In this document: in pieces, positions 4,228-35,758 of the stretch
How the letters are laid out: every line of letters begins with the position of its first letter
Numbering within the stretch: position 1 is the stretch's first letter
Source of the DNA: Convolutriloba macropyga
Taxonomy: Eukaryota
Reading direction: 5' to 3'
Length of the DNA stretch: 64,000 nucleotides
Assembly: GCF_964194025.1 (NCBI RefSeq)
Contig: NC_134473.1
Coordinates: 72,230,001 to 72,294,000, forward strand
Position numbers and translations under genes: made by a program
Notes under the pieces: generated by a model
Told to the model about the DNA's origin: nothing
Databases searched by the model: none
What the model saw: the letters and a program-made list of their open reading frames with translations, nothing else

Positions 4228-5414
4228 GTTAGTCAAACTCACGAGGTAAAAACTTGACTCATTGGTTGAGCTCAGAATCCATCCCAGGTTTAGGCATCAA
4301 CTTATGAAAAAACTCAAAAAATCTAGTGGAGAGGGCTCGCTTATTGACTAAAATTACACAGTCGAGCGTCCCGCTAAAGTCTTTTAAAGGGTCGAGTAAA
4401 AGTCTTTGCATGAGCTTTTGGGCCAAAGCATGCTATTTTCATGGATCGAGAAATACCATTTTAATTGTTGAACTAAGGACAATTCAACGGATGAGCAGGG
4501 TCTTTTCATGCGCAGAGCAAAAGACTTTTTTTTTGATAAGTCTTTCCTAGAAAAATTCGAAACTCTTTCAATATATGCTTCACATCAGTACATTAAGAAA
4601 AAGCAATTCATGTATCACGACTAACGAGCATTGTAACAGAGCACTCCAAATTGAAAGACAGTTGGAAAGTTACAAAATAAATTAAGATTTTTTGTGACTC
4701 TTTAGATAAAGCAGTTATCGCAGCTAGATTACATTGCCACATTACACCTGATTAAATGAATCTAGGCAGTTACATTACGATGCAGAGGTATACCCAAATC
4801 GTCACGGGCAGATATGCCCGATGCGTGTATCTCGTGTTCGTTTTTTACTATGTTAATACATTAAAAGGAAGGGAATATCGTATCCCGTGTTCGCAAAAGT
4901 GTCCTAACTTTAGCCGCGAAATAGAAGTACAAACTTAATAACCTATTTTTCGCGCGAGTTGTATCACGCATCTACTCCATTTATGTATCGATTTTTCGCA
5001 CGCAATGTAGCTGACCTTAATCACTCTAGCCATTATGAAAAAAACGGAATCTTTTAATTGTTTTCCCTTCAAAATTATGAGACGTCATTTTTTCAAACAA
5101 CCAGCTTTTTTGATTGACTACTTCTCTTCAGAAAAGCATTAGTTTAAAAGATCGTACTGAAGTACAGCGTGAGTTTAAATTAATTTTGTGTCAAGCTTAA
5201 GTGCATTATGGTTCTTAACTGCTTCATTAAAAAAATACAAGAGATTTTTGATTCATGATTTTTGATTCATCATCTTGGATTTAGATATTTTGCTCTGACA
5301 AACGCTTAATGAAAACTAGTCGACATTGTTTGGCATGTCTATAACAGCTCTCTCGTAACGGGTTCGCATCACTCCTCACACTTTGAGATCCAATACATTT
5401 CATCTGGCTTTTTC

Positions 5415-8400
5415 TATTTGGTTAGGCGAACTAGTTCGATCTGCGATCTTTTATGCACGTCAGTTCCTTGGCTAGGGTACCAAGCAAAATAAACCCTATC
5501 TAAACCAACGATGAACGAACAAGGGGTGCGTCCTGATTTTTTAGGGTCGTCGTGCAAGATAAACGCTTGAAAATCTGATTATGAAAACTCAAAAGTCTAA
5601 ACGCTAACTCTCGAAATTCTTGAATTATTAGCGGTGCTTACTTGAAATGACGTTCGTTTTAGTTTAAAAAATCGAGACAATCTATAACTAAAATTGAGAC
5701 AATTTTTGGAAGTGAAAACTGAAAAGCTTTTACACTATTCTTTTTTTAGTGGTAGATCGCGTGACTTTGTTTAGCGCAGAGGGTAAAACTGGTGGTGGTT
5801 TTTAGCGATTTAATTTGTTGACTCTATGTTCTGATCAGTAAAAGACTTCTGGTACAACAAATGTTTTCACGCTACTTTTCCTGGAAATGGTTGTTTTTTT
5901 TTTCAAAACAGTCGGGAGAAAAAACAATTCCATGTAAAGTATCTAATTTTTTATTTTTAAAATATGATCACTGGGTGGTATTGTGCTTGTTGTAAACTAT
6001 CAATATAGTGGAAACAAAAGGCATTTTTGTGTGGCGGCTGAAAGAAATTGCGTTCCCAATATCCACTAAGTCTCCCCTGAGTCTAGCTCTATTGAACATT
6101 AATCATAACGATTACCCTCAGTGGAACTATTGTTATTTAAATTGTTTAAAGCAATAACTTCCTTAATTTAAAAAGTTTTATCAGATTTAATGCTTTCAGT
6201 GTCTCTCTAAGTGGGAGAAAACGGGAACTTTGTTCATACCTCTTGCTCTAGGAGTTCTGGGTGGCTTCTCTTCACCTAAAAATTGTCTGAAAAGATTGTC
6301 CAAACTATCAGATATTCGTAGTTTCTATTCTGAGGGAATACTGGTGGCTTACGGAAATATTGTCTCAGTAGTGACCTATAATTGCTATCAGAGGATCAGC
6401 ATCTATGCTTTTGGTGAAGTCGAGTCTATCCCTTTTTGTTGAAGTCGAGATGTGTATCCATGAACTTGACTTATTGACAAGTAAACTCCCTTGTGATGAA
6501 AGCGCAATTGTTTCTGTTTACTCAATTGCTGCTTGATCAGAAAAAAATACTGAATTTATCATTATTTTCTCACAAAGCCGTTGAATTGACATTGAGGTGG
6601 ATGAACTCTGAATTGCTTCATTGTCGATTCTACAGTTTTGTTATTGCTGATGTCTTAAAAAATGAATTGAAACTTCCAACCAGTGTGCTAATGAAGACAG
6701 TAATGTGCATATAGGTGCCACCGCTCCAATGAGTCGCGAGTTGGCACCTATATACACATTACGTAATTTCCCTTTTGTTTTATCCAATATATTTCCCTTT
6801 ATAGTGAGACCGTGTAACTTGCACGTAAAACCAACTTGCGAAAATAACTTGAATAAAAAACCAGCTTAACTCTTTTATAAGTTTTAATTTGTTCGCTATT
6901 ATTTATTTAAAAAACTAATTAACTATAAAATCTAAACTCACCATTACAACCTTTAATACCTCTATCATCAAATGGATCAATAGCTATCTTGTATTGTTCT
7001 TTTGTTTCAAATGATGTTTCTTGCTATCAATAGTGTAATTAGTTACATATTTACTATTTGGTTAGGCGAACTAGTTCGATCTGCGATCTTTTATGCACAT
7101 CAGTTCCTTGGCTAGGGTACCAGGCAAAATAAACCCTATCTAAACCAACGGTGATTGACCAAGGGGTGCGTCCTGATATTTTAGGGTCGTCGTGCAAGAT
7201 GAACGCTTGAAGATCTGATTATGAAAACTCGAAAGTCTAAACGCTACCTCTCGAAATTCTGAATTATTAGCGGTGCTTACTTGAAATGACGTTCGTTTTA
7301 GTTGAAGAAATCGAGATAATCCATAACTAAAATTAAGACAATTTTTGGAAGTGAAAACTGAAAAGCTTTTACGCTTATACTTTTTTTAGTCGTAGATCGC
7401 GTGACTTTGTTTAGCGCAGAGGGTAAAACTGGTGGTGTTTTTTAGCGATTTATTTTGTTGACTCTATGTTCTGATCAGTAAAAGACTTCTGGTATAAAAA
7501 TGTTTTCACGCTACTTTTCCAGGAAATGGTTGTTTTTTTTTCAAAACACTCGGGAGAAAAATAAATTCCATGTAATATATCTAATTTTTTATTTTGAAAA
7601 TGTGATCACTGGGTGGCATTGTGCTTGTTGTAAACTATCAATATAGTGGAAACAAAAGGCATTTTTGTGTGCCGGCTGAATTGCGTTCCCAATTTCCAAT
7701 AATTCTCCCCTGAGTCTAGCTCTATTGAACATTAATCATAACGATTACCCTCAGTGGCATTATTGTTATTTAAATTGTTGACAGCAATGACTTCGTTATT
7801 TTAAAAAGTTTTATCAGATTTAATGCTTTCAAAGTCTTTCGAAGTGGAGAAAACGCGATCTTTGCTCATACCTCTTCCTCCAGCAGTTCTGGGTGGCTTC
7901 TCTTCACCTAAAAATTGTCTGAAAAGATTGTCCAAACTATCAGATATTCGTAGTTTCCATTCTTAGGTACTACTGGTGGCTTCAGGAAATATTGTCTCAG
8001 TAGTGACCTACAAATGCTATCAGAAGATCAGCTTCTATGCTTTTGGCGAAGTCGAGTCTATCCCTTTTTGTTGAAGTCGAGATGTGTATCCCTAAACTTG
8101 ACCTATTGACAAGTAAACTCCCTTGCGATGAAAGTGCAATTGTTTCTGCTTACTCCATTGCTGCTTGATCAGAAAGAAATGCTGACGTTATCATTATTCT
8201 CTCACAAAGCCGTTGAATTGCATTGAGGCGGTGAACTCTGAATTGCTTGTTTGTCGGTTCTACAGTTTTGTTATTGCTGATGTCTTAAAAAATGAATTAA
8301 AACTTCCAACCAGTTTGCTAATGAAGACAGTAATGTGCATATAGGTGCCTCTGCTCCATTGAGTCGCGAGTTGGCACCTATATACACATTACTTTATTTC

Positions 8401-8830
8401 CCTTTTGTTTTATCCACTATATTGCCCCTTCATATTCCCTCAAAATCTATCAATTCCTGTCTCATTTAGTGCAGTCTAATAGTATCGAGTTAAGCTGGTA
8501 ATTAACCGTTATCAGACGGATAGTTCGAATTCTATCCCAATTGTCTTCAGTGGACGTATCCCGGATACTAGTGTAACTAGTGAGACCGTGTAAGAAGCAC
8601 GTAAAACCAACTTGCGAAGATAACTTGAATAAAAAACCAGCTTAACTCTTTTATAAGTTTTAATTTGTTTGCTATTATTTATTTAAAAAACTAATTAACT
8701 ATAGAATCTAAACTCACCATTACAAACTTTATTACCTCTATCATCAAATGGATCAAAAGCTATCTTGTATTGTTCTTTTGTTTCTAATGATGTTTCTTAC
8801 TATTAATAGTGCAATTAGTTACATGTTTAC
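5415..8830. repeat. Tandem duplication of ~1.3 kb host intron DNA plus the element's left terminus and PolB 3' end (copy 1 ~5415-7058, copy 2 ~7053-8830)
   Basis: Collinear near-identical text from ctatttggttaggcgaactag (5415 and 7054) onward. Copy 1 lacks the ~150 bp segment 8430-8578. Confidence 0.92.
8329..8393. other. Terminal stem-loop of the element (20-21 bp arms, 23 nt loop); further copies at 6699-6762 and 26070-26133
   Basis: agtaatgtgcatataggtgcc-N23-ggcacctatatacacattact, one mismatch between arms. Confidence 0.85.
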
Positions 8831-11800
8831 TTTTTGCATCATAAATAGCATTTTTATAGTCTTCAATAGTAATTTGGTTTTTAATAGTAGCTTTGGTTAT
8901 GCCTTTTGACTTTTTCTCTCCTTCTCTTTTAACTATAGTATAACAATATGCTTTTGATTTAAGGAAACGGGCTTCTATAATAGTATCATTATGTAGCTCA
9001 TCCTCCATCTTGCCTAACTCATTATTATGTAATATATCTTTTATCTTATTCACTTCAGTTTCCATATCACTATCTAAAGGAGCATTTATGTTTAAAAATA
9101 CGCTATCAGTATCTGTATAATGATAACTACAATCTAATTTTATCAAAATTATCGTATATAGCTTTATACAAAAATAGTTTAACTTTCTCCAATATAACAA
9201 AACCAACACAATTAAACGTATCAAACTTATTTTAGTTCTTGTTTTATGTACAGCCACTAGTTCATAATCAAACTTCACAGCCTTTTTAAAACTAATATTT
9301 TCTACTAACTTAACTTATCTATCCAAATCATTAACTAACTCTACATCCTGTCTAATATATACATTTTCTATTGTTATTCTATAGAAGGCATTATTCATTA
9401 ACTTAAAGAATACATCACCAAAATTATCCCCCTAGCTTTATCTTCTTCCCATTTCTGAGTATTAAACTCAATATAAGCTTTAACCGCTCACTCTTACTAT
9501 ACTCTATCTTTTGCTTAATTGTAACATCTTCCAACCTTAAACTTTTACTTAAATACCATTCCACCATCTCTCCATCAATTACATAAGGCTTCTTATCTGT
9601 TGAATTCAACATCAACTTCTCATTTTGTTTAAATCCTTTCTTTTTATTTTCATTTTGATTGTCTGTAAACTGATCAATGTTAGCCTTTGTCTTATCTGGA
9701 AAGAATGGATAATTCTTTGTTTTCTGTTTCATCTCATCGGTATACTTTACATCAATGGTGTAGATATTAACCTTTAGTAGAGCTAGAGCTAGTATATACT
9801 ACACTGTTACAAACAATTATCTCAGCAGTAGGTAAAGCTTGCACCATAGCAGAGGAATATAATGAGCTGAAGTCTAAGTATTTTAAATAATTCTCTTTCC
9901 CAGTATACTCAGGATCTATTTCTTTATTTTTATATTTCACATGACAATCACCTAATACTGAAGCTAACCGACCTCTAATACCATGTTGTATTGTATCATA
10001 AATATTAACTGTATTTTCTTCATAATGTTTATGTCTAACATTAGTATATTTCAATCAACATAACCAAGTTAATCCAGGAGTAGAACATGTATAACAAGGA
10101 TCTATTTCATAATATTCTAAACACTCAGCTATTAAACTTTCAAATACATCTACCGATAATAAAACATCAGTTTTTAGATATAACATCATATAATTTTTTA
10201 TTGTTTCACATCCAGACTCTTTCCAACAATCTAACGCTTGCTTATACTCTTCATTAGTAACAACACTTTGTTTCAAAATAGAATAGAATACCTCCTTACG
10301 TGGTAATGATGATTCATTAAGTTTATCTGCACTAACTAACCATTCATATGGGAATATACCTTTACGTCTATCTAACTTAAATTTGTTTAATGTTACACAC
10401 TCTTTATGACTCAATGTTTTACTTATAGCATCAAAGCTAAGTTGATGGAAGATCCTAAACGCATCTTATGCTTTAGCATAACCCATATCAATACAAATGT
10501 AAATCTCATCAGTTTTTGTTAATACTTTAAGTCTAATCTTCTCTGCTAGTTTAGTTATAAATAGGTGATTATCATAATTAGTAGAATTAAATGCATATAT
10601 TGGTACAAAAGCGTTCTTATCTTGGAATTTATACTCATTGAGAGCATATCCTCTAAATTTACCATTTAGGTGATCATGATTTCTAGCAATGTCTTCACCC
10701 ATATACTCGTTACAATAATCACACTCAATACTAGGGTGAATAATACTATCTTCTTTTAAGGGAAAATTTATACTAAAAATCTCTTTAAACAATTTATTAT
10801 AATAACTCATACTACTTATAAACCAATCAACTATGCCATCTCCACAATAACTTTCATACTTATCCTCTAATATATCAGGATAATCAATTTTTATATATAA
10901 CTCACAAGCAATAGGAATATGTTTTCTGTTTTTATTATACATTCAAATTCATAATACGTAGCAAATGGTACGCCATTTTTAAAATGGAACTTATCAAACT
11001 TTAGATAATCATCACGATGGAATGTTCATCTTCCTGTATGGTTCTGTGTATCACACAATTCAAAATGTTTATTTTATGCTTGTTCAGTCAGAAATGATAC
11101 ACAACATTTTCGACATGGATAACATTTATGTTCAGATGAATTTCTTAATGAGAATGATACATCCTTACCTAGCAAATAATGATTATCCCAGTATAAAATA
11201 TTACATCCTTTTGGATCATTATGATTAATTAAAACAGGATTAATAGTTTTTTTTTATTTAGATTAATTACATTAAATAATACTTTATCTTTGTTGAACTC
11301 TTGTATTTTCTGTAAAGCTTTATATCCATAAGGAGGTGGAAGCCTCGGTAATTTTATCTCATTAATATACTCTGGTATTTTTATAATTTCTAACTCTATT
11401 GGGATGGTATTTAGCAGGATGTAGATAAGCAAGTAAACACCACAATAAACATTTATTATCATATTTATGTATATTAATTATATATTTAGACGTGAAGGGC
11501 AATTCATTAGTACAACCACCAGTAGGATAAAACCTGTGTTTATACATAGTTCTTTTAACAAATCTATTCATGCTCCAATCAGATTGTTTCATCTCATGTT
11601 CTTGTATTATAGTCTCATGTTCACAATTGAACATATCCAAGTCATAGGGAACATTATATTGTCTAGTCATTAGTCTAAATGTGAATTCATTTTCTTCTAA
11701 CTTATCATTTGAAGGTTTTGTATACCTTAATACATCAAAGGTGTTAAATTTTTTATGGGGATTCATGTTATACATTGTCTCGAATACTTTCAAGAATTTG

Positions 11801-12681
11801 GGATCTCCATAATTACTACATGTTATCATTATTTGATTATTTTTCATAACACAATCTAATCCTCACTCATTAACTTTCTCTCTCCACTTACCATCAACAA
11901 GTCTTGTCTGTCTAACATTTTCTTTATGATCATCTTAATCTTTGTGTTTATTTTTATTATTATATTTAGTTTTATATATATCGCAAGAACCTGTATTTGA
12001 TGTATGGGTCTTTGATAATGATTCTCTATCTTTAGATGAGTCTCTATCTTTAGATGATTCTCTATCCTTATCTTTTCTTTTAACGTTATCTGGATGCATC
12101 TTTGTTTTTAAATATTGATTCACATTATATTGACTTAGAGTAGTCTTACATGTTACACATTCAAACTTAATCCCATTCTTTATTATTTCTCCACTATTTA
12201 GTCTTACATTATTCCTATGTTTTAATGTTTCTATATGTTTATTATATTCAGTATTTTTATCTAGATACATATCACAACTATCAAAATACTTTATTCCCTA
12301 TAGTTCAGGATAATGTTTATTTTTTTGTTCTATATCTTCAATAGTTTCATTTCTATTATATAATCGCTCATTCGTTTTATGTTTAAATAATTGAATGTAT
12401 CTAGCGTAATTCTTTTGAGTTAACTCTTGATTACAATCTTCGCATCTAGTCTCATTAGTATTATTTTAGGTTTATTAAACATAGACAATATCATCAGATG
12501 AATCTGAATCTGAATCTTTAGATGATTCTCTATCTTTAGATGATTCTCTATCTTTGGATGATTCTCTATCGTTAGATGATTCTCGTTCTTTAGATGGATC
12601 CAAATCTGACTCTAAATCTATAGATGATTCTCTATCTTTAGATGATTCTCGATCTTGCTTCAGTCTTTCGCAATGACTCAT
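8695..12681 (-). pseudogene. polB: Protein-primed-type family B DNA polymerase (Polinton/Maverick-like), unit A, essentially full length (~1330 codons) but broken by stops and frameshifts
   Basis: In order: C2H2-like fingers, NKCLLWCLLAYLHP, CxxC...DH..GKFRG (endonuclease VII-like), YDNHLFI (ExoII), RKGIFPYEW, YLKTDVLL (ExoIII), YLDFSSLY (motif A), FFKLMNNAFY (B), YTDTDS (C), KSKAY, KSKGI. Confidence 0.93.
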
Positions 12682-12994
12682 GCATATCCTCTTCTCGTTG
12701 TTTTAATTTTGCAGTCTGTTTATCATACGACTCCTTTATTTGACAAACATCTGTTCGTTTGTTTTCTTCTTGTAGTTTGTTTTTCTTTAACAACATTTGG
12801 GTTACTATGCTAGTAGAACTAGATTGGGCTTGTCCACTTCCAAATTGAGCTCGCTCACTTTGACATTGGACTTGTCAACTTCCAGATTGGACTTCAATTC
12901 CAGTTTGAATGTTATCGTTGTAATCTTGTGCACTTATTTTTATACGACAACTTTTGAAATAACATTATTTATGTAATTTTTCACATTAAAAATT

Positions 12995-13276
12995 ATTAGT
13001 ATTAAGTGCGATAAATGTAAAGATAAGGCTTGGTGTTGGAGTTGTGATATATGTCAAAGTGAGCCTTTCATATGTTTTGTATGTAAGGAAACTAGAACAT
13101 ATAGAGAGAGGCATGATCATATGTATATACATTATAATGGTCCTAATCAAAATTTAGTATGTAGAAAGTGTCAAGTAAATAAACATATCCCTCACTATAG
13201 ATTTAAACATTTCACTTGTAGGCTATGCTTGTATCTCAATAGATATAGATTTGGTCGTACTAAAAAAGATTTATAG
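12995..13276 (+). pseudogene. Small Cys/His-rich protein, unit A (frame open, start codon lost)
   Basis: Translates ISIKCDKCKDKAWCWSCDIC..., homologous to ORF 21252-21536. Confidence 0.75.
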
Positions 13277-13294
13277 AACATGTAAATAAACATG

Positions 13295-14029
13295 GAGAGA
13301 ACACACCATCTGTATAGGTTAACTTAAATAGTTCACGACAATTCTTTGAAAGTGTACAAGAGAAGTTTATAAATGATTCTCATTTATATAGATTGAAATA
13401 TTATAAATATGGTATAATAAATTATGGTACTATTGGTGACTATTATATTGTATGAGATAAAGATAAAAATTGTGTATATGATTCTAGAAATGGCGATCTT
13501 GAATTTGAGAAGTATATTGATTATACAGAGTTTAAAGAAAAAGAATTTAATATATTAAGTAGTTATTTAATAGATAGAATGGTAGAACCAACACATATGA
13601 AACCAAATGATTTAATGTTCTACTTTGAAGAATATTTAAATTTTAAAGAAACAAACAAACCATTCAATTTTTATAAAACTTATACGAAAGTAAAAAGTAT
13701 ATGTAATAAGATCCATAGTGGATATATTGCTATATTTGGGATAATTACTATATTTGGATTTGCATATAGTTACAATCAAAAATATGGTGACAATAATAAA
13801 AATACTAATAATGATAAAAATTAATGGTATAGATATAAGGAACATAGATAAGGCCAAAATTAATTTCAGAATTGGTAAGAAGGTATCAAAAGGTTCTGGT
13901 GAAATTAATAATAACAATAAAACAATAGATATAAAACGTATTTTAGCCATTAGTCTTATATCTATTTATGCAAACCATAATCTTAATAAATCTACAATTA
14001 AAACTGACGTTAATATAAAGAGAATGTAA
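13295..14029 (+). pseudogene. ATPase gene 3' half, unit A; Walker A/B region deleted
   Basis: Sequence jumps from just after the Cys-rich ORF to the RENTP region; continues into MVEPTHMKPN...; frameshift near 13820. Confidence 0.8.
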
Positions 14030-14618
14030 TATTGAAATTGATGATAGGGGTGATCATTCAGAACATAAATAAATAACACATTGTAATAAGTTACATAATA
14101 TTTTAAATGTAAGATGTATGAAAAGTATGCAAAGACAATATAGTGGTCATCATTTTAGAGATGAATGCAAAGATAATCGTACAGGTTCTATAACATCAGC
14201 ACATAGTTATATTGATTATACTGATATTAATAATAGTGATAGTGATAGTGATTGTAATGATAATATTGATATCAATAAGGTTTTTAATGATATGAAAGAT
14301 AGTATTGTAGAGAATTTAGAATATTACATTGGAAATGAATTTAAAAAAGGTATAAATGAGATAGAAACAGAAATTACAAATGATTTATAAACAGGGGTAA
14401 TATTAAAAGGAAAAGTAAAGAAATTAAAACAACTAGAATTTGTTTTCTAAGCAAAATTGAAACGAATAGAGATTGTTTTTTATAAAACTGGTGGTTTATG
14501 TAAAGAATGTTGTTCAGAAAATGTTCGATGTCCAAAATGTAATATTATGTTAATTAGATCTTCTCTCAGTAAACATATAAAAAGGCCACATAATAGCCAA
14601 AATAGTAATTCTACTTAA
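14005..14618 (+). pseudogene. Zn-finger protein, unit A
   Basis: Homologous to 19569-20084. C-terminal GLCKECC..CPKC..RSSLSKH motifs in shifted frames. Confidence 0.75.
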
Positions 14619-14619
14619 A

Positions 14620-15055
14620 ATTTGGCATTAGATTAAAAACTACAAAAACTACACAGATTATATACAATCCGAGGATAATTCCGCATTATGCGCATAAATT
14701 TTCCGCATATTGCGCACTAAAACTACAAATCACATAGAATAACAGTAGATTACATAGGAAAGCATTAGATTACATAGAATAACATTAAATTACATTGAAT
14801 AACACGGATTAATATATAGCCCAAGATAATTCCGCACGCGTTCAGAATTATCTTGGGCTATATATTAATCCGTGGTATTCTATGTAATCTAATGTTATTC
14901 TATGTATTCTAATGTTATTCTATGTAACCTACTGTTATTCTATGTAATTTGTAATTTTAATGCGCAATATGCGGAAAATTTATGCGCATAATGCGGAATT
15001 ATCCTCGGACTTGTATATAAATTGTGTAATTTTTGTAATTTTTAATATAATGCCA
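14620..15055. repeat. Palindromic junction 1 (head-to-head join of units A and B), axis ~14839
   Basis: ...tatagcccaagataattc cgcacgcgttca gaattatcttgggctata...; arms carry 20-bp tandem repeats (agattacatagaataacatt-like). Confidence 0.93.
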
Positions 15056-15059
15056 AATT

Positions 15060-15662
15060 TTATCTAGAATTATTATTTTGGCTATTATGTGACATTTTGT
15101 ATGGTTACTAAGAGAAGATCTATTTAAGCTAAAATTACATGTTGGACATGGAACTATTCCTGAACAACGTTCCTTACATAAACCCCAGTTGTATAAAAAC
15201 AATCTCTAATCTTTTCAATTTTGCATAAACAGCAAGTTCTATTTGTTTTAGTTTCCTTACTTTCCTTCTTTATATTACCCCCTGTTTTTAAATCATTTAT
15301 AATTTCTGTTTCTATCTCATTTATAATTTCTGTTTTCATTCATTTATAATCTCTCTTTGTAAATTATCTTTCAATTCATTAAAAACCTTATTGATATCAA
15401 TATTATCATTACAATCCTTATCACTATCACTATTATTAATATCAGTATAATCAATATAACTATGTACTGATGTTATAGTACCTGTACGATTATCTTTGCA
15501 TTCATCTCTAAAATGATAACCACTATATTGTCTTTGCATACAATTCATACATCTTACAATTAAAATATTATGTAACTTATTACAATGTATTATTTATTTA
15601 TTTTCTGAATGATCACCCCTATCATCAATTTCAATATTAAATTCACTACATATTAACGTCAG
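15060..15662 (-). pseudogene. Zn-finger protein, unit B
   Basis: ORF fragments 15336-15548, 15154-15339, 14999-15202 (CCLCKIEK..., CKERC..CPTC..RSSLSNH). Confidence 0.75.
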
Positions 15663-16343
15663 TTTTAGATGTAGATTTAATAAGATTATGGTTTGCATAA
15701 ATAGATATAAGACTAATGGCTAAAATACGTTTTATATCGATTGTTTGATTGTTATTATTAAATTCACCAGAACCTTTTGTTACCTTCTTACCAATTCTGC
15801 ATTTAATCTTGGCCTTATCTATGTTCCTTATGTCTATACCATTAATTTTATCATTATTAGTATTGCTGTTATTGTCACCATGTTTTTGATAGTAACTATA
15901 TGCAAATCCAAATATAGTAATTTTACCAAATATAGCAATATATCCACTATGGATCACATTACATACACTTTTTACTTTCGTATAAGTTTTATAAAAATTG
16001 AATGGTTTGTTTGTTTCTTTAAAATTTAAATATTCTTCAAAGTAGAACATTAACTCTTTTGGTTTAATATGTGTTGGTTCTACCATTCTATCTATTAAAT
16101 AACTACTTAGTAAAATAAATTCTTTTTCTTTAAACTCTGTATAATCAATATACTTCTCAAATTCAAGATCGCCATTTCTAGAATCATATACAACCTTTTT
16201 ATCTTTATCTAAAACAATATAACAGTCACCAATAGTACTAAAATTTAATATACCATATTTATAATGTTTAAATCTATATAGATTAGAATCAATTTTAAAC
16301 TTCTCTTGTCATCTTTCAAAGAATTGTCGTGAACTATTTAAAG

Positions 16344-16398
<55 letters not shown>

Positions 16399-16860
16399 GC
16401 TTTTGTGTTCTCTCTTGCTTTAGTATTTAAATCTGTTGCAATATGACCCACACATATTATATTAATATTGTGTTGTCTACCTTTAGAGTATACTGAATCT
16501 AGAGCTGGTAATCTAATGTTTTCGCCCAGATCATCAAATATAATAGCGCTATTAGCAAAGTTATCTATATTATCTAAAAATTTTAAATCATCAATGCCGT
16601 ATGCGTTATAACCCTTCCACTCACTGGCATCAATACAGAATACCTTAACACTATCATACAAACCACAATAATCTTTTATAATTGTTGTTTTGCCTGAATT
16701 AGATGGACCAAAAAAAATAAAGTTATGTTTCTACATTTCAAGTGGTTCTTATAGAACATTCCTATATCCCACAAATCTCACCCAAAAAGCAGAATATTTT
16801 TCATAATCCCAATAAGCAATAATAATAATTTATAATAACATATTAAATAACGGGAAAACT
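15646..16860 (-). pseudogene. A32/FtsK-HerA-type ATPase with C-terminal hydrophobic segments, unit B
   Basis: GPSNSGKT at ~16690-16710, IIFDD, SKGRQHN. Disrupted by a (TA)n tract. Frame reads through ...GDCYIVLDKD...DRMVEPTH... into ORF 15646-16086. Confidence 0.85.
16345..16398. repeat. (TA)n microsatellite inside the unit B ATPase gene
   Basis: Direct read; gives the IYIYIY artefact in the ORF track. Confidence 0.97.
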
Positions 16861-16912
16861 AAATAAATTTTTATTAGGACTAAACTTCAATATTATATTT
16901 CTTTACATGTTC

Positions 16913-17195
16913 TATAAATCGTTTTTAGTACGACCAGGTCTATATCTATTGAGATACCAGCATAACCTACAAGTGAAATGTTTAAATCTATAGTGAGGGA
17001 TATGTTTATTTACTTGACACTTTCTACATACTAAATTTTGATTAGGACCATTATAATGTATATACATATGATCATGCCTCTCTCTATATGTTCTAGTTTC
17101 CTTACATACAAAACATATGAAAGGCTCACTTTGACATATATCACAACTCCAACACCAAGCCTTATCTTTACATTTATCGCACTTAATACTAATAA
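16913..17195 (-). pseudogene. Small Cys/His-rich protein, unit B
   Basis: Nearly identical inverted copy of 12995-13276. Confidence 0.75.
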
Positions 17196-17506
17196 TTTTT
17201 AATGTGAAAAATTACATAATTAATGTTATTTCAAAAGTTGTCGTATAAAAATAAGTGCACAAGATTACAACGATAACATTCAAACTGGAATTGAAGTCCA
17301 ATCTGGAAGTTGACAAGTCCAATGTCAAAGTGAGCGAGCTCAATTTGGAAGTGGACAAGCCCAATCTAGTTCTACTAGCATAGTAACCCAAATGTTGTTA
17401 AATAAAAACAAACTACAAGAAGAAAACAAACGAACAGATGTTTGTCAAATAAAGGAGTCGTATGATAAACAGACTGCAAAATTAAAACAACGAGAAGAGG
17501 ATATGC

Positions 17507-18996
17507 ATGAGTCATTGCGAAAGACTGAAGCAAGATCGAGAATCATCTAAAGATAGAGAATCATCTATAGATTTAGAGTCAGATTTGGATCCATCTAAAG
17601 AACGAGAATCATCTAACGATAGAGAATCATCCAAAGATAGAGAATCATCTAAAGATAGAGAATCATCTAAAGATTCAGATTCAGATTCATCTGATGATAT
17701 TGTCTATGTTTAATAAGCCTAAAATAATACTAATGAGACTAGATGCGAAGATTGTAATCAAGAGTTAACTCAAAAGAATTACGCTAGATACATTCAATTA
17801 TTTAAACATAAAACGAATGAGCGATTATATAATAGAAATGAAACTATTGAAGATATAGAACAAAAAAATAAACATTATCCTGAACTATAGGGAATAAAGT
17901 ATTTTGATAGTTGTGATATGTATCTAGATAAAAATACTGAATATAATAAACATATAGAAACATTAAAACATAGGAATAATTTAAGATTAAATAGTGGAGA
18001 AATAATAAAGAATGGGAGCAAGTTTGAATGTGTAACATGTGAGACTACTCTAAGTCAATATAATTTGAATCAATATTTAAAAACAAAGATGCATCCAGAT
18101 AACGTTAAAAGTAAAGATAAGGATAGAGAATCATCTAAAGAAAGAGAATCATCTAAAGATAGAGAATCATTATCAAAGACCCAAACATCAAGTACAGGTT
18201 CTTGCGATATATTTAATACTAAAAATAATAATAAAAATAAACACAATGATTCAGATGATCATAAAGAAAATGTTAAACAGAAAAAACTTGTTAATGGTAA
18301 GTGGAGAGAGAAAGTTAATGAGTTAGGATTAAATCATAATGTGAAGTATAATCAAATAATGATAGAAGTAATAATTATGAAGATCCCAAAATCTTGAAAG
18401 TATTAGAGACAATGTATAACATAAATCCCCATATAAAGTTTAAGAGCTTTGATGTAGTAAGGTATACAAAACCTACAGATGATAAGTTAGAAGAAAATGA
18501 ATTCACATTTAGACTAATGATTAGAAAATTTCATGGTCCCTATGACTTGGATATATTGAAAAGTGAACTCGAGACTGGAATGCAAGAACAAGCGTGAAAC
18601 AATCTCGTTGGAGCATGCAAAGATTTGTTAAAAGAACTATGTATATACAGAGGTTTTATCCTACTGGTGTTTGTACTACTGAGTTAGCATTCACGTCTAG
18701 ATATATTTTTAATACACATAATAATAAAAATAAATGTTTATTGTGGTGTTAACCTGCTTATCTACATCCTGCTAAAGCCCATCCCAAAAGAGTTAGAAAT
18801 TATAAAAATACCAGAGTATATTAATGAGATAATATTACCGAGGCTTCCACCTCCTTATGGATATAAAGCTTTACAGAAAATACAAGAGTTCAACAAATAT
18901 AAAGTTTTATTTAATGTGTTCAATCTAAATAAAAATAAAACTATTAATCCTGTATTAATCAATCATAATGATCCGGACAGATGTATTATATTATAC
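17507..18996 (+). pseudogene. polB: PolB N-terminal third, unit B, truncated and fused to a terminal-repeat arm
   Basis: ORF 17507-17713 is identical to 12475-12681. Homology to PolB stops after INHNDPDRCIILY at ~18996. Confidence 0.88.
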
Positions 18997-18999
18997 CTA

Positions 19000-19402
19000 T
19001 ATAGATTAAAAATTACAAAAAATATACAGATTATATACAAGTCCAAGGATAATTCCGCATTATGCGCATAAATTTTCCGCATATTGCGCATTAAAATTAC
19101 AAATTATATAAAATAACAGTAGATTACATAGAATAGCATTAGATTACATAGAATAACATTAGATTACATTATATAACACGGATTAATATATAGCCCAAGA
19201 TAATTCCGCACGCAGGCGGAATTATCTTGGGCTATATACTAATCCGTGGTATTCTATGCAATCTAATGCTATTCTATGTATTCTAATGTTATTCTATGTA
19301 ATTTGTAATTTTAATGCCCAATATGCGGAAAATTTATGCGCATAATGCGGAATTATCCTCGGACTATATATAATCTATGTAACTTTTGTAATTTATAATC
19401 TA
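19000..19402. repeat. Palindromic junction 2 (~200 bp arms), axis ~19212
   Basis: ...gcccaagataattccgc acgcag gcggaattatcttgggc...; same 20-bp subrepeats as junction 1. Confidence 0.93.
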
Positions 19403-19412
19403 ATGCCAAATT

Positions 19413-20048
19413 TTAACTAGAATTATTATACTGGCTATTATGTGGCCTTTTTATATGTTTACTAAGAGAAAATCTTTTTAAAATAATATTAAATGTTGGA
19501 CATGGAACTTTTTCTGGACAACAATTTTACATAAAACCCCAGTTGTATCAAAACAATCTCTAATCTTTTCAATTTTTGCATGAACAACAATTTCTATTAA
19601 CTTTGGTTTCCTTGTTTTCCTTCTTTATATTACCCCCTGTTTTTAAATCATTTATAAATTTTGTTTCTATCTCTTTTATATCTTCTTTTTGTATTTCATT
19701 TATAATCTCTATTCGTAAATCATTTCTAATGTAATACTTTAAATTCTCTACAATACTATCTTTTATATCATTAAAAACATTATTGATATCAATATTATCA
19801 TTACAAACACTATCACTATTATTAATATCAGTAAAATCAATACAACTATGTACTGATGTCATAGAACCTGTACGATAATATTTGCATTCATTTCTAAAAC
19901 TAGAACCACTATATTGTCTTTGCATACATTTCATACCTCTTAAAAATAAATTGTTATGTAACTTAATATAATGTATCATTAAATCAAGTTCTGGATAATC
20001 ACCACTATCAACAATTTCATTATAACATTCTCTACATATTAACGTCAT
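19413..20048 (-). pseudogene. Zn-finger protein, unit C (likely start MTLICREC)
   Basis: N-terminal CxxC...H...H, acidic/helical middle and C-terminal CxxC clusters after a frameshift at ~19575. Confidence 0.78.
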
Positions 20049-21202
20049 TTTTAGTTGTAGAATTATTAAGATTATGGGTTGCATAAATAGATATAAGACT
20101 AAAGTCTAATATACATATTATATCTAATGTTTCATTGTTATTATTAAATACACCATAAGCTATTGTTCCCTTCTTACCAATTCTTAGTTTAATCTTGGCC
20201 TTATCTATGTTCCCTATATCTATACCATTTATTTTATCATTATTAGTATTTTTATTATTGTCACCATTTTTGATAGTAACTATATGCAAATCCAAATATA
20301 GTAATTATCCCAAATATAGCAATATATCCACTATGGATCTTATTACATATACTTTTTACTTTCGTATAAGATTTATAAAAATTGAATGGTTTGTTTGTTT
20401 CTTTAACGTTTAAATATTCTTCAAAATAGAACACTAACTCATTTCGTTTAATATGTGTCTGTTCTGCCATTCCATCTTTTAAATAACTACTTAGTATATT
20501 AAGTTCTTTTTCTTTAAAATCTGTTTGATCAACATACCACTCAATATCAAGATCGCCATTTCTAGAAACATTTACAACATTTTTATCTTTATCTCATACA
20601 ATATAATAGTCACCAATAGTACTGTAATTTATTATACCATATTTATAATATTTAAATCTATATAGATTAGAATCAATTTTAAACTTCTCTTGTACTCTTT
20701 CAAAGATATGCCGTGAACTTTTTAATGTAACATATAAAGCTGGTGTGTTCTCTCTTGTTTTTGTATATAAATCTGTTACAATATGACCCACACATATTAT
20801 ATTCATATTGTGATGTCTACATTTAGAGTGTAATGAATCCATATCTGGTAATCTAATGTTTTCTCCTATATCATCAAAAATAATAAGACTATTAGCAAAG
20901 TTATCTATATTATCTAATAATTTTAAATCATCAATGCCGTATGCGTTATAACCCTTCCACTCACTGGCATCAATACAGAATACATTAACGCTGTCATAAA
21001 AACCACAATATTCTTTTATAAATAATGTTTTGCCTGAATTAGATGGCCCATAAATAATAAAGTTATGTTTCTTCATTTCAAGTGGTTCTTGTAGAATATT
21101 CCTATATCCCAAAAATCTCGTCCTAAAATCAGAATATTTATCATAATTCCAATAAGCAATTATAATAATTAATAATAACATATGAAATAATGGGAACACC
21201 AA
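20032..21202 (-). pseudogene. A32/FtsK-HerA-type (virus packaging-like) ATPase with hydrophobic N- and C-terminal segments, unit C (~390 codons reconstructed)
   Basis: Walker A IIYGPSNSGKT, Walker B LIIFDD, arginine-finger-like SKCRHHN, ICVGH. TGA at 20594, then homologous continuation in ORFs 20261-20470 and 20032-20295. Confidence 0.88.
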
Positions 21203-21251
21203 ATAAAATTTTATTAGGACTAAACTTCAATATTATATTTCTTTACATGTT

Positions 21252-21536
21252 CTATAAATCGTTTTTAGTACATCCAAATCTATATCTATTGTGATACAAG
21301 CATAACCTACAAGTGAAATGTTTAAATCCATAGTGAGGGATATGTTTTTTTACTTGACATTTTTTACATAGTAAATTTTGATTAGGATCATTAAAATGTA
21401 TATCCATGTGATCATGTCTCTCTCTATATGTTATAGTTTCCTTACATACAAAACATAAGAAAGGCTCAATTTGACACATATCACAACTCCAACACCAAGT
21501 CCTATCTTTACATTTATCGCTTTTAGTACTAATCAT
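21252..21536 (-). CDS. Small Cys/His-rich putative Zn-binding protein (94 aa), intact in unit C
   Basis: ATG-initiated ORF with repeated CxxC and His residues; frame conserved in all three units. Confidence 0.75.
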   Translation of the reverse strand: MISTKSDKCKDRTWCWSCDMCQIEPFLCFVCKETITYRERHDHMDIHFNDPNQNLLCKKCQVKKHIPHYGFKHFTCRLCLYHNRYRFGCTKNDL

Positions 21537-21539
21537 TTC

Positions 21540-21720
21540 TAATTATAAAAAATTACATAAATAATATTATCTCAAATTTTTTCGTATAAAAATAAGTGCA
21601 CGAGATTCCAACGATAACATTCAAACTGGAAATGAAGTCCAATCTGGAAGTTGACAAGTCCATTGTCAAAGTGAGCGAGCTCAATTTGGAAGTGGACAAG
21701 CCCAATCTAGTTCTACTAAC
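21540..21720. promoter_or_regulatory. Putative divergent promoter between the Cys/ATPase/ZnF block and PolB (copies at ~12810-12990 and ~17200-17380)
   Basis: Non-coding gap between divergent genes with gtataaaaa (~21584) and repeated caat(c/t)tggaagt(t/g)gacaag(t/c)cca motifs. Confidence 0.55.
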
Positions 21721-21911
21721 ATGGCTACCCAAAAGTTTTTAAATAAAAACTAACTACAAGAAGAAAACAAACAAATAGACGGAGAAAGACAAAAAGGAGG
21801 AAGCAGAAAAAGATTTAGAATCAATCAGAAGGTTTAATCAAATAAATGAAGAAATAAAGGAGTCGTATGATAAACAGACTGCAAAATTAAAACAACGAGA
21901 AGAGGATATGC

Positions 21912-24900
21912 ATGAGTCATTGCGAAAGACTGAAGCAAGATCGAGAATCATCTAAAGATAGAGAATCATCCATAGATTTAGATACAGATTCGGATCCACA
22001 TAAAGAACGAGAATCGTCTAAAGATAGAAAATCATCCAAAGATAGAGAATCATCGAAACATAGAAAATCATCTAAAGATTCAGATTCAGAATCATCTGAT
22101 GATATTGTCTATGCTAAAAAGCCTAACAAAAATACTAATAAGAATAGATGCGAAGATTGAAATCGAGAGTTAACTCAAAAGAATTATGCTAGATACATTC
22201 AATCACTTAAACATAAAACGAATGAGCGATTATATAACAGAAATGAAATTATTGAGAGTGCTTATAATGTTGGAGTAAAAGTTACTATTGAAGATATAGA
22301 ACAAAAAAAAGATAAACGGCAAAAGAAAAAGAGGGAATAAAATATTGTGATAGTTGTGATATGTATCTAGATTATAATACTGAACACTATAAACATATAG
22401 AAACATTAAACCATAGGAAAAATGCAAGACTAAATATTGGGGAATTAATAAAGAGTGGGAGTAAGTTTGAATGTGTAACAGGTAAGACTACTCTAAGTCA
22501 ATATAGTGTGGAGCAACGTTTAAAAACAAAGATGCATCTAGATAATTTTAAAGGTAAAGCTGAGGATAAAAAATCATCTAAAGATAGAGAACCATCTAAA
22601 GATAGAGAATCATTATCAAAGACCCAAACATCAAGTACAGGTTCTAGCGATATATGTCATACTAAATATAATAATAAAAATAAACACAATGATTCAGATG
22701 ATCATAAAGAAAATGTTAAACAAAAAATTTGTTGATGGTAAGTGGAGAGAGAAAGTTAATGAGTGAGGATTAGATTGTAATATGAAATATAATCAAATAA
22801 TGATAACATGTAGTAATTATGGAGATCCCAAATTCTTAAAAGTATTAGAGACAACGTAAAACATAAGTCCCCGTATAAAATTTAAAAGCTTTGAAGTAGT
22901 AAGGTATACAAAACCTACAGATGATAAGTTAGAAGAAAATGAATTATTATTTAGACTCAAGACTAGACAATATAATGGTCCCTATGACTTGGATATGTTG
23001 AAAAGTGAACTTGAGACTAGAATGCAAGAACAAGCGTGAAACAATCTCGTTTGAGCATGCAAAGATTTGTTAAGAGAACTATGTAAATACACAGGTTTTA
23101 TCCTACTGGTGGTTGTACTACTGAGTTACCATTCACGTCTAGATTTATTTTTAATATACATAATAATGAAAATAATTGTTTTTTGTGGTGTTTAATTGCT
23201 TATCTACATCCTGCTAAAGCCCATACCAAAAGAATTAGTAATTATAATTAACCAGAGTGTATTAATGAGATAAAATTACCAAGGCTTCCACCTCCTTATG
23301 GATATAAAGATTTACAGAAAATACAAGTGTTCAACTAATATAAAGTTTTATTCAATGTGTTTAATCTAAATAAAAATAAGACTATTAATCCTAATCCTGT
23401 ATTAATCAATCATAATGATCCAAAAATATGAAATATATTATACTCGATAATCATTATTTGCTATGTAATGATGTATCATTCTTATTAAGAAAATCATCTA
23501 AATAAAAATGTTATCCATGTCTAAAATGTTGTGTATCATTTCTAACTGAACATGCATTACGTAAACATTTAGAACTGTGTGATACACAGAACCTTATAGG
23601 AAGCAGAACATTTTATCGTGATGATTATCTAAAGTTTGATAAGTTCCACAATAAAAACAGAGTACCATTTGCTATGTATTTTGATTTTGAATGTCTAAAA
23701 AAAACAGAAAACACATTCCTACTGCTTGTGGGTTTTATATAAAAAGTGATTATCCTGATATATTAGATTAAAAGTATGAAAGTTATTGTGGAGATGGCAT
23801 AGTTGATTGGTTTATAAGTAGAATGAGTTATTATAATAATTTGTTTAAAGAGATTTTTAGCATAAATATTCCATTAAAAGAAGATCGTAGTACTCCACTT
23901 ACTATTGGGTGTTTTTATTGTAACGAGTATATGGGTGAAGACATTGTTAGAGATCATGTGAATTGTAAATTTAGAGGATATGCTAACAATAAGTGTAACC
24001 TCCAGGCTAAGAACAGTTTTGTACCAATATATACTTTTAATTCTACAAATTAAGATCATCACCTATTTAAAACTGAACTAGCAAAGAAGATTAGACTTAA
24101 AGTATTAACAAAAACTGATAAGAATTATATTTGTTTTGATATGGGTTATGCTAAAGCATTAGGTATGCTTAGGTTCTTCCATCCACTTAGCTTAGATGCT
24201 ATAAGTAAAACATTGAGTGATAAAGAGTGTGTAACGAAAAACAAATTTAAGTTAGATAGACGTAAAGGTATATTCCCATATGAATGATTTGATAGTATAG
24301 ACAAACCTAATGAAAAATCATTACCACCCAAGGAGGTTTTCTATTCTAAGTTGAAACAAAGTGGTATTACTAATGAAGAGTATAGGCAAGCGTTAGATTA
24401 TTGGAAAGAAGCTGGATGTGAAACAATAAAAGATTCTATGATGTTATATCTAAAAACTGATGTATTATTATCGGTAGATGTATTTGAAAGGTTAAGAGGT
24501 AAGTGTTTAGAATATTATGAAATAGATCCTTGTTATACATATTCTAATCCTGGATTAACTTGGTTACGTGGATTGAAATATACTAATGTTAGACTTAAAT
24601 ATTTTTAAAAAATACAGTTAATATTTATGATACAGTACAACCTGGTACTAGAGGTGGTTTAACTTCAGTGTTAGGCGATTGTCATGTGAAATGTTAAAAT
24701 AAAGAAGTAGATCCAGAGTATACTGGGAGATAGAATCATTTAAAACACTTAGAGTTCAACTCATTATATTCCTCTGTTATGGTTCAAGCTTTACCTACTG
24801 GTGACATAAGTGTTTGTAACGGTTTAGTATATACTGGCTCTAGCTCTACTAAATGTTATATCTACACCATTGATGTAAGGTATACCAATAAGATGAAACA

Positions 24901-25497
24901 AAAAACAAAGAAGTATCCATTCTTTCCACAAAAGACAAAGGCTAATATTGATCAGTCTACAGATTATCAAAATGAAAATAACAAGAAAGGATACAAACCA
25001 AGCGAGAAGTTGATATTGAAGTTAACAGATAAGAAGGATTATGTAATTGAAAGAGAGATGATGGATTGGTATTTTAATAAAGGTTTGAGGTTGGAAGATG
25101 TTACAAATAAGCAAGAGTTAGAGTATATTAAGAGTGAGTGGTTAAAGACTGATACTGAGTTTAATATTCAGAAAAGGAAAGAAGCTAAAGCTAAGGGTGA
25201 TAAATTTGGTGATTTATTCTTTAAGTTAATGAATAACGCCTACTATGGAAAAACAATAAAAATGTATATAATAGACAAGATAGAGTTATTTAATGATATA
25301 GGTAGATATATTAAATTAGTAGAAAGTATTAGTTTTAAATATGCTGTAGATTTTGATGATGAACTAGTGGCTGTACATAAAACAAGAGGTAATGTTAAGT
25401 TAGATAAGTTTAATTATATTGGTTTTTTTATATTAGAGAGAGCTATACTTTTTATGTATAAAATTCTATATACAATTACTTTCAGAAAAACTTAGAT
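21912..25497 (+). pseudogene. polB: Protein-primed-type PolB, unit C, truncated just before motif C
   Basis: Collinear with unit A PolB: CFYC..VRDH..FRGY, YLKTDVLLSVDVFE, FFKLMNNAYYGKT. Replaced after ~25497 by an inverted copy of the left end. Confidence 0.92.
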
Positions 25498-25499
25498 TA

Positions 25500-26108
25500 G
25501 TTTTAGTTATAACTTATCTCGAGTTCTTAAACTAAAACGAACGTCATTTCAAGTAAGCACCGCTAATAATTCAGAATTTCGAGAGGTAGCGTTTAGACTT
25601 ACGGTTTTCATAATCAGATTTTCAAGCGTTCATCTTGCACGACGACCCTAAAATATCAGGACGCACCCCTTGGTCAATCACCGTTGGTTTAGATAGGGTT
25701 TATTTTGCTTAATACCCTAGCCAAGGAACTGATGTGCATAAAAGATCGCAGATCGAACTAGTTCGCCTAACCAAATAGTAAATATGTAACTAATTACACT
25801 ATTGATAGCAAGAAACATCATTTGAAACAAAAGAACAATACAAGATAGCTATTGATCCATTTGATGATAGAGGTATTAAAGGTTGTAATGGTGAGTTTAG
25901 ATTTTATAGTTAATTAGTTTTTTAAATAAATAATAGCGAACAAATTAAAACTTATAAAAGAGTTAAGCTGGTTTTTTATTCAAGTTATTTTCGCAAGTTG
26001 GTTTTACGTGCAAGTTACACGGTCTCACTATAAAGGGAAATATATTGGATAAAACAAAAGGGAAATTACGTAATGTGTATATAGGTGCCAACTCGCGACT
26101 CATTGGAG
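25500..26108 (-). repeat. Inverted near-identical copy of ~6724-7333
   Basis: Contains the same PolB-3'/host duplication breakpoint (ccaaatagtaaatatgtaac) and the same ~150 bp deletion as at 6800. Confidence 0.92.
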
Positions 26109-26621
26109 TGCAGACACTTATATAAACATTACTGAAGATGTTATTTTTCAAAAGTTGACGACAATTATTGACAAAATAGTGTTATCAAAATAACGAAGCT
26201 TAAATGAAGCAGCAATTTTTGTCAATTTGAAATTAAATTATTTTAGACTTTCAAAAGTAAGAGGACAAAAACGAGGATAAAAAGTTACTATCACCGAAAG
26301 AATTTTGTCCAGAAAAATGAATCATAAAGATTTCCTGTAGGAAAAGGTCTTCTAAAATTCATTTCTTAGACGATTCCTTAAAAAAGACGATTCCTTAAAA
26401 TTAACCGTCAAAAACTATATACTTTTTAAGTTTCTTTAGCGCGTTTTAACCTGTTTTTACAACTATTTCGGTAATGTTTCACAAATTTTCAAAAAAAAGG
26501 TCACGCGTGAAAAGGTTCTTCATAAATTTTCGTTCCAGTTAGGATTTTACAAAAACGTATTTGAGATGCCACGATATTTTGTGCAGATTTTCAGCAACTT
26601 TTACACAGAAGTGTGTTGCAG

Positions 26622-26838: not shown

Positions 26839-27513
26839 GTTAGTTGGGCAAAAACTGCCTTCTATAATTTATAAGGTCTACGAAAACAAACATGCAGCCA
26901 ATGAGTTGTATTTAAATCATAGCCTGCTTAACTGATTAAAATACCAAAAAACGCATCATACAACCATAGCAACAATGGTGTACCCTAATCGAGGCCTGTA
27001 TACCCGTATTCCACCGCAATTAGGCGAGAATAAGGGAGTAAAGCATTTCCACTCTTAAATAGAAGGGAAAAGAGTGTAACTTCGAGGAAGTTACACTTTT
27101 TTACACTCTTTACACTCTTTACTCCACTCTTATTACACTCTTAAAAATTCCTTATGATTTTACTCTTCAGTCCAATTTTTAACAGGGAAAAAGAGGTGAA
27201 GAATTTTATTTTCACTACTCAAAGGCGTTCCAAAACCAGAGTAATGTTTTTACTGCTAGGTTTAGTGGTACCTTGAAAAACAATGCTTCCTCTTTTTTTC
27301 ATTTTGAATCACTTTCATCCAGATAAACTGAATGAGACACTTGAGAACGGGCCATCGGCCCAATAGTGCTCTCCCACAGTCAAATATGTGATTGTATTTG
27401 TACAAGTAATTGTGAAGCTACTTAATGACTGATGGAAACAATTTGCTATTATTATTATTAAGAGTGTATTTTATTTTAAAATTACACTCTTAGAAATACA
27501 CTACAATTACGCT

Positions 27514-27737
27514 GTTTAGTCCACCCCCAGTCTAGACCTCGACCTATCACAAGACCATGCTTGACCAAAAATCGGTATGATTAGACCATCCTGGACGCAA
27601 AAGAGCTATGAAAAAACTTTCTCTAGACTTTACGGATTGCCTGGAATTTCGTATAAAAGTACCCTTCTCGACAGATATTAAAAATGGAAAAAGTCTGATC
27701 ATAAAGTCGGGTCCTAGACTTGGGTGTGAACTAAACG
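27514..27737. mobile_element. Small MITE-like element in ENaC intron
   Basis: Imperfect ~40 bp inverted ends gtttagtccacccccagtctag... / ...ctagacttgggtgtgaactaaac. Confidence 0.5.
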
Positions 27738-35558: not shown

Positions 35559-35758
35559 NNNNNNNNNNNNNNNNNNNNNNNNNNNNNNNNNNNNNNNNNN
35601 NNNNNNNNNNNNNNNNNNNNNNNNNNNNNNNNNNNNNNNNNNNNNNNNNNNNNNNNNNNNNNNNNNNNNNNNNNNNNNNNNNNNNNNNNNNNNNNNNNNN
35701 NNNNNNNNNNNNNNNNNNNNNNNNNNNNNNNNNNNNNNNNNNNNNNNNNNNNNNNNNN
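35559..35758. other. Assembly gap (200 N)
   Basis: Run of N. Confidence 1.

Follow-up and report, generated by a model that had tools for sequence, protein, structure and literature searches.

Our reading, to which we give a probability of roughly 0.8, is that the window (the whole 64-kb stretch of Convolutriloba macropyga DNA analyzed here) contains a rearranged copy of a ~14-kb palindromic Polinton family without integrase or capsid genes, inserted at the hexamer GAAGAC likely by the integrase of complete Polintons and leaving a 6-bp duplication. The element is one copy of an abundant palindrome family, a point that the original prediction had missed. Members of the family have AG...CT ends, target-site duplications (TSDs) of 6 bp, a palindromic plan with a fixed centre, and a reduced gene set, and they have termini and a pool of protein-primed PolB (pPolB) genes in common with complete Polintons; for the window copy, the empty site is visible as well, in paralogues of the host repeat. 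The family is best read as a snap-back, helper-dependent Polinton satellite.

Ends, target duplication and empty site

The AG...CT unit extends from 6699 to 26133 (19,435 bp) and is free of N. Direct reading confirmed the hexamers of the original prediction, GAAGAC on the left, found again at 8323, and GAAGAT on the right (Table 1). The chance of a match of at least 5/6 at the right flank is ~0.004, given the local base composition, and the mismatched position is a T followed by G, likely a product of CpG decay. The right junction (26079-26506 or longer) is bridged with zero differences by contigs from three of four public read runs, which may derive from the source individual.

Table 1. Features of the window copy and its left flank (window coordinates)
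Feature	Position	Strand	Remarks
Host flank, source of later duplication into the element	5410-6698	+	Old low-copy repeat
Outer left target hexamer GAAGAC	6693-6698	+	Read directly; followed by AGTAATGTG, 6699-6707
Derived left terminus	6699-7049	+	Without 148 bp present at 8431-8577 and in other copies; enters host sequence at ~7050
Duplicate of host flank 5410-6698, inside the 19.4-kb unit	7050-8328	+	1.28 kb
Second GAAGAC	8323-8328	+	Precedes AGTAATGTG at 8329; predicted to have come with tandem duplication of host flank and left end
Family-type left terminus	8329-8836	+	Continuous with pPolB 3' end, as in other copies
Arm 1: broken pPolB and its upstream ORF, outward-reading	8701-12742	-	PF03175 on one fragment, E 2.4e-5, below cut-off
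Arm 1: Cys/His-rich ORF, A32-type ATPase, C-terminal extension, small ORF; inward-reading	12977-14423	+	
Palindrome centre 1	14668-15009	.	Axis 14838/14839; 20-bp tandem repeats on both sides
Arm 2	14839-18996	.	Truncated in N-terminal part of pPolB
Tandem duplicate of 14629-18996	19002-23443	.	Includes centre 2, axis near 19212
A32-type ATPase domain, open frame of 210 aa	20597-21226	-	PF04665, E 6.9e-7, above cut-off
Arm 3: broken pPolB	22206-25495	+	Truncated at ~25497
Right end: inverted copy of 6699-7336	25497-26133	-	Includes 286 bp of host flank
Right target hexamer GAAGAT	26134-26139	+	5/6 match; preceded by AACATTACT, 26125-26133

The prediction of Polinton-type AG...CT ends is borne out by the relatives of the element. 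A search of the 1.18-Gb genome with 6699-7050, in which 40 of 1549 candidates were scored, gave 30 loci, and all 26 intact ends among them begin with AG. Elements examined in full number 37, namely 28 palindromes (the window copy included) and nine complete Polintons. TSDs were scored in the 32 that have both ends, which leaves out five palindromes with one damaged end and includes four elements with a second terminus type. A perfect 6-bp TSD is present in 26 of the 32, a 5/6 match in three (the window copy, C1:31.46 Mb, and C16:41.64 Mb), and one is ambiguous within a G run; two have no TSD. Mean flank match in the 11 elements tabulated is 0.95 at k=6, compared to 0.27-0.35 at k=3-5 and 7-9. 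The 6-bp length agrees with the Maverick signature given in the available text of PMC8097293 (6-bp TSD, with (AG)3 or (AGT)2 end motifs).

The original prediction had also offered a second parse, a perfect 4-bp AAGA around CAGT...ACTG. These letters are indeed present on both sides of the window copy, because the hexamer begins with G and ends with C, and they would suit a transposase of the cut-and-paste kind that acts on CAGT...ACTG ends and duplicates 4 bp. Copies moved by such an enzyme should all have C in front of AGT and a duplication 4 bp long. Of the 23 intact termini lying outside the window, only seven have C in front of AG, so that the end is AG and not CAG, and the family duplicates 6 bp. 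We therefore ruled out the 4-bp parse and regard a transposase of this kind as scarcely credible.

Each end terminates in a 66-bp hairpin, at 8329-8394, at 6699-6764, and, in decayed form, at 26068-26133 (z = -7.7, -6.3, and -4.1, respectively). Among 19 ends, both-sided changes occur at 6 of 21 pairs and 94% of cells are paired, with shuffles that do not control for the relatedness of the ends. The original account of ends and flanks holds, with one correction: the inverted repeat is ~640 bp long (6699-7336 versus 25497-26133, 97%), and the unit includes 1.28 kb of host flank.

The empty site expected to join 6698 to 26140 is shown by paralogues of the host repeat. Seven paralogues of the left flank were found, and the right flank alone had zero other matches in the genome search; in four of the seven, BLAST placed right-flank similarity directly after the left-flank match. 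In an alignment of the four paralogues that reach the junction (three of the BLAST four plus L050), a single hexamer position is followed by sequence like that from 26140 onward. An empty allele of the window locus itself was not seen in the public read contigs. The right-junction contig has a depth of 28, about one haplotype, compared to 26.6 + 28 just downstream in X1, and no contig of the other haplotype is among those listed.

We note some further features of the window. A high-copy repeat with very high summed contig depth adjoins the element on the right (26950-27650), and an assembly gap of 200 N lies outside the element (35559-35758). The sole Rfam match is a single tRNA gene at 48256-48338 (RF00005, 60.4 bits). 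A tandem array of >20 units of ~604 bp, 90 to 97% identical and without an Rfam match, occupies 49800-64000.

Local history of the window copy

Pfam matches were obtained for 3 of 20 ORFs in the window. Broken pPolB copies, ~60 to 80% identical to the pPolB of complete elements, lie in both outer arms, and most of the N-terminal domain of the arm 1 ATPase is deleted. The arm 2 ATPase is interrupted by an (AT)n microsatellite (16340-16403). As originally reported, the insert has no integrase: the entire 64-kb window was searched with probes taken from the complete elements of this genome, and none for integrase, capsid, or protease gave a match at E ≤ 0.05.

The original prediction treated the whole 19.4-kb array as the product of a single integration event, which would require that it was formed outside the chromosome and then entered between 6698 and 26134. 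The ends at 6699 and 26133 do form a pair in that they have a 148-bp deletion in common, both run into 286 bp of host flank, and their ~640 bp at 97% identity are bracketed by the 5/6 hexamer. However, the array contains a copy of the left flank of its own target, hexamer included, 5410-6800 being matched by 7050-8430. We rejected the idea that this duplicated flank is element sequence, as it is missing at the other 27 loci of the search with 6699-7050 and the host paralogues run on into the right flank. The host part of the duplicate is 6.6% diverged, compared to ~11% for arms 1 and 3, and so the duplication is younger than the divergence of the arms. Full-length agreement with other family copies is found at the 8329 end, which runs on into pPolB, and not at the 6699 end. 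Finally, a comparison of the right end with the 6699 copy gives seven differences in the outermost 25 bp and none in the next 396 bp (25713-26108), which fits a later conversion. A single-event origin of the array is not supported, and we regard it as very unlikely.

We infer instead a local history of four rearrangements after insertion, reconstructed from sequence comparison. The centre and an arm would first have been duplicated in tandem, most of one ATPase would then have been deleted, and the host flank and left end would have been duplicated in turn. Last, sequence of the 6699 copy would have replaced the right end up to, but not including, its outermost 25 bp and the target hexamer; an identical interior with 7 of 25 tip bases differing fits such overwriting in place, with the original tip and hexamer kept. 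By arithmetic, undoing the rearrangements within 8329-26133 leaves ~14 kb, the size of the family. We also discarded a derivation of arm 3 from another family member: all three trees place the window arms in a single clade.

Comparable events are seen elsewhere in this genome, with a parallel duplication of flank plus end at C3:29989/31501 and an inverted flank copy at C1:395937. In Galileo, ends are rebuilt and TIRs extended by repair from the other end (PMC3573991, available text), and such rebuilding of one end from the other fits the right end of the window copy. Polinton-driven local rearrangement has been described in C. elegans, in the available part of PMC11414722.

A palindrome family and complete Polintons with the same terminus

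With the window ATPase as query, the best 150 of 2444 candidates were scored. ATPase pairs among these 150 matches comprise 39 in convergent orientation, 1.6 to 3.8 kb apart, and none in divergent orientation. All 10 paired and all 10 unpaired matches that were fetched, the latter chosen for having no listed partner, lie in palindromes with long inverted arms, and inside those 20 palindromes there was no match to integrase, capsid, or protease. Including five copies found by TIR similarity, two by the terminus on C1, and the window copy, 28 of 28 copies are palindromes, typically of 12 to 15 kb, and there is no monomer with this ATPase cassette among them. Both arms of a copy encode pPolB and the A32-type ATPase, a conserved hairpin lies at the centre, and the probes for integrase, capsid, and protease matched none of the 28. 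With the best 150 of 2444 candidates scored, a complete element carrying this type of ATPase may therefore exist. Three near-identical ATPase copies, ~58 kb apart (G000:C8:39084298, 39142134, and 39199670), probably sit in a segmental tandem array.

From the centre outward, each arm has a small ORF, the ATPase with its C-terminal extension, and a Cys/His ORF, all reading inward, followed by an ORF and pPolB reading outward and then by the terminus. This is the gene order of a complete Polinton minus the protease-capsid-integrase block. The palindrome ATPase is only 22 to 32% identical to that of complete elements. Among the matches listed in sequence databases, 81 and 111 are relatives of this ATPase, and in many relatives the ATPase and its extension are a single gene; the extension gave no usable Atlas match. 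A 27-base motif beside the centre has 44 exact genome matches. In 20 of the 20 loci returned, it sits at the palindrome axis with the same short loop, in some with a one-sided deletion, and the diverged centres of the window copy retain a similar GCAC-NN-GTGC-like core. Median length is 13.8 kb for palindromes (n = 16; 10 of 26 were set aside for damage or for large duplications within the element) and 16.3 kb for complete elements (n = 8).

A second palindrome type, represented by 4 of the 20 (L091-L092, L095-L096, L099-L100, and L179-L180), has the same central ATPase cassette with an inward-reading, distant pPolB, a AGTAATTG hairpin end, and 6-bp TSDs. One further element, L093-L094 (G000:C10:2280903-2295685), has two pPolB arms of different ancestry and a perfect TSD and is a recombinant dimer.

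The original prediction called for a helper enzyme, and a search for integrase-coding elements with the same terminus identified nine complete Polintons, with integrase, capsid, and pPolB genes, each end of which is the hairpin terminus of the window element. Exact matches to the 16-base terminus number 833 in the genome, up to four per element, compared to 0 for a control. Among elements picked by TIR similarity, two of seven are complete (C13:3006976-3023665 and C3:53175707-53191974), with TIRs of ~530 to 550 bp. Both encode an rve integrase, a double-jelly-roll capsid protein, an A32 ATPase, and a protease-like ORF, and in both the pPolB is split over several frames. The integrase probe matched PF00665 (E 8e-7, just below the cut-off), and the capsid probe was confirmed as MCP by PF21738; the protease and minor-capsid ORFs of complete elements are presumed to be such from their position and motifs. 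Picking by the terminus alone on C1 gave seven complete gene sets and two palindromes among nine elements.

A search with the integrase gave 135 scored matches of 86 to 100% identity. Eight of these elements were fetched: one has the window-type pPolB and seven a different pPolB (six of them with AGTAGTGG ends), and thus one integrase-capsid backbone carries several replication ends. In the complete Polintons of this search (L157-L172), the backbone is ~90% identical while the pPolB and terminus modules differ, and five of six scorable elements have 6/6 TSDs. The window element has its ends in common with integrase-coding elements of the same genome, as a non-autonomous derivative would. The helper postulated originally thus has candidate sources, and common ends and TSD length point to probable mobilization in trans by the complete-Polinton integrase.

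In the tree of the ATPase extension, arms group by element in all 14 elements with at least two rows, 12 of these groupings being starred; a further two elements are represented by a single row. In the pPolB trees, complete elements nest among palindrome arms, and one element (C10) has arms of different ancestry. The window arms have the longest branches of the trees, and so the window copy is among the oldest sampled. Because arm-to-arm conversion has occurred in the window copy, a sister relation between arms does not prove that an element inserted with two identical arms. Values of dN/dS between elements, from pairs that are not independent, are 0.33 (pPolB), 0.56 (ATPase domain), 0.88 (ATPase extension), and 0.84 (small ORF); between arms of one element they are 0.71 to 1.23. 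These values show that the extension and the small ORF are under little constraint. The low value for pPolB may reflect capture from complete elements.

Two other accounts of the palindromes were weighed. The first supposes that monomeric deletion derivatives integrated and that palindromes then grew in the chromosome, in the manner of Galileo, by TIR extension and arm-to-arm conversion. TIR extension from the other end is known for Galileo (PMC3573991, available text), and the window has conversion tracts of the kind expected, with 0 differences over 25713-26108 and 97 to 100% identity between arm 2 and arm 1 over 12138-13338; the inverted flank copy at C1:395937 is also in keeping with it. 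We nonetheless consider growth in the chromosome unlikely, as the 28 cassette copies include no monomer even among the 10 partnerless matches, the same central loop occupies the axis in 20 of 20 loci and its core is common to the diverged centres of the window copy, and complete Polintons with the same ends retain short TIRs. The second account takes the palindromes to be assembly or amplification artefacts arising from fold-back reads. Fold-back artefacts are a known failure mode, and some loci have gaps and near-identical tandem copies. However, the arms differ by 2 to 15% and by indels, host flanks and the 6-bp duplication are particular to each element, the same centre recurs at independent loci, and the right junction of the window copy is bridged by contigs of three runs, possibly from the source individual. 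We judge the artefact explanation very unlikely.

Origin, relation to known systems and meaning

The family of palindromes is known here from integrated copies alone, and the following scheme is a proposal for its origin and replication. An arm would derive from a complete Polinton that lost all that separates the ATPase at the left end from the Cys/His ORF at the right end, the left terminus being replaced by a fold-back. Replication would probably proceed via a free hairpin or dimer. Protein-primed strand displacement would release a strand, which would fold back to pair with itself as a ~7-kb hairpin duplex bearing a single intact origin, and copying round the hairpin would restore a dimer with two integrase-ready ends. 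Packaging in helper capsids is possible, to judge from the length of the palindromes, the constraint on the ATPase domain, and an analogy with helper-dependent adenoviral vectors, for which a minimum length is required for stability (PMC7226970, available text). More tentatively, and at somewhat under even odds, the family may be a lineage of true satellites of animal Polintons. Its self-complementary genome, with a packaging ATPase of its own and a fold-back centre that is conserved, would swap replication end modules with its helpers (two terminus/pPolB types are seen); its ~7-kb half, doubled to near helper length, would fit their capsids, and integration would go via the helper integrase.

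The ends and target duplication of the window copy are textbook for a Polinton, and the target duplication alone is ordinary. With Polintons/Mavericks, the element has in common AG...CT ends within TIRs, a 6-bp TSD (5/6 in the window), a protein-primed PolB, and an A32-type ATPase. It differs in that it has no integrase, capsid, or protease match, and its family in being inverted repeat throughout, with two pPolB and two ATPase copies and a terminus of AGTAAT plus a 66-bp hairpin. In the literature searched we found no whole-element palindromic Polinton, and none is described in the available text of PMC8097293, PMC11296320, PMC6431247, PMC3014272, and PMC3671162.

Integrase-less integrated Polinton-like viruses of the Ca_PLV1 type are similar in being integrated without a detectable integrase, and integration in trans has been proposed for them (PMC11296320). 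Unlike the window family, they retain morphogenesis genes, and the available text of PMC11296320 mentions no palindromic genome; for the window family, common ends name a candidate helper. Halocafeteria virophages and Polinton-like viruses have short palindromes in their TIRs beside the TSD, but there, in the available text of bioRxiv 10.64898/2026.07.28.741278, these occur mainly with non-pPolB replication genes and in complete elements, whereas in the window family terminal palindromes occur with pPolB and the whole element is palindromic too. Galileo/Foldback elements also have one end rebuilt from the other in the chromosome (PMC3573991, available text), but with a P-type transposase, a 7-bp TSD, and no replication genes.

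Hairpin or palindromic derivatives of terminal-protein replicons occur in phi29, yeast pGKL1, and Streptomyces plasmids. As in snap-back defective genomes, described for RNA viruses in the available text of PMC6140465, a fold-back would yield a genome with two copies of one end, and all 28 copies are palindromes; unlike them, the window family is heritable, integrating, and high-copy, and it has a centre that is fixed and an ATPase lineage of its own. Hairpin-capped inverted dimers have been described in yeast chromosomes (PMC10766183, available text).

Surveys that require an integrase and a pPolB within 4 to 40 kb, as in the method given in the available text of PMC8097293, are blind to such palindromes. 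The family bears on the likely action of an integrase in trans on common ends and on the exchange of pPolB/terminus modules. It also bears on whether animal Polintons replicate in free linear form and make particles; such particles had not been observed according to the available text of PMC8097293. Integrated giant palindromes with a fixed fold-back point are the product that strand-displacement replication would predict, and they name a specific molecule to seek. If the satellite lineage is true, it would be indirect evidence for a free, packaged, and parasitizable stage of animal Polintons.
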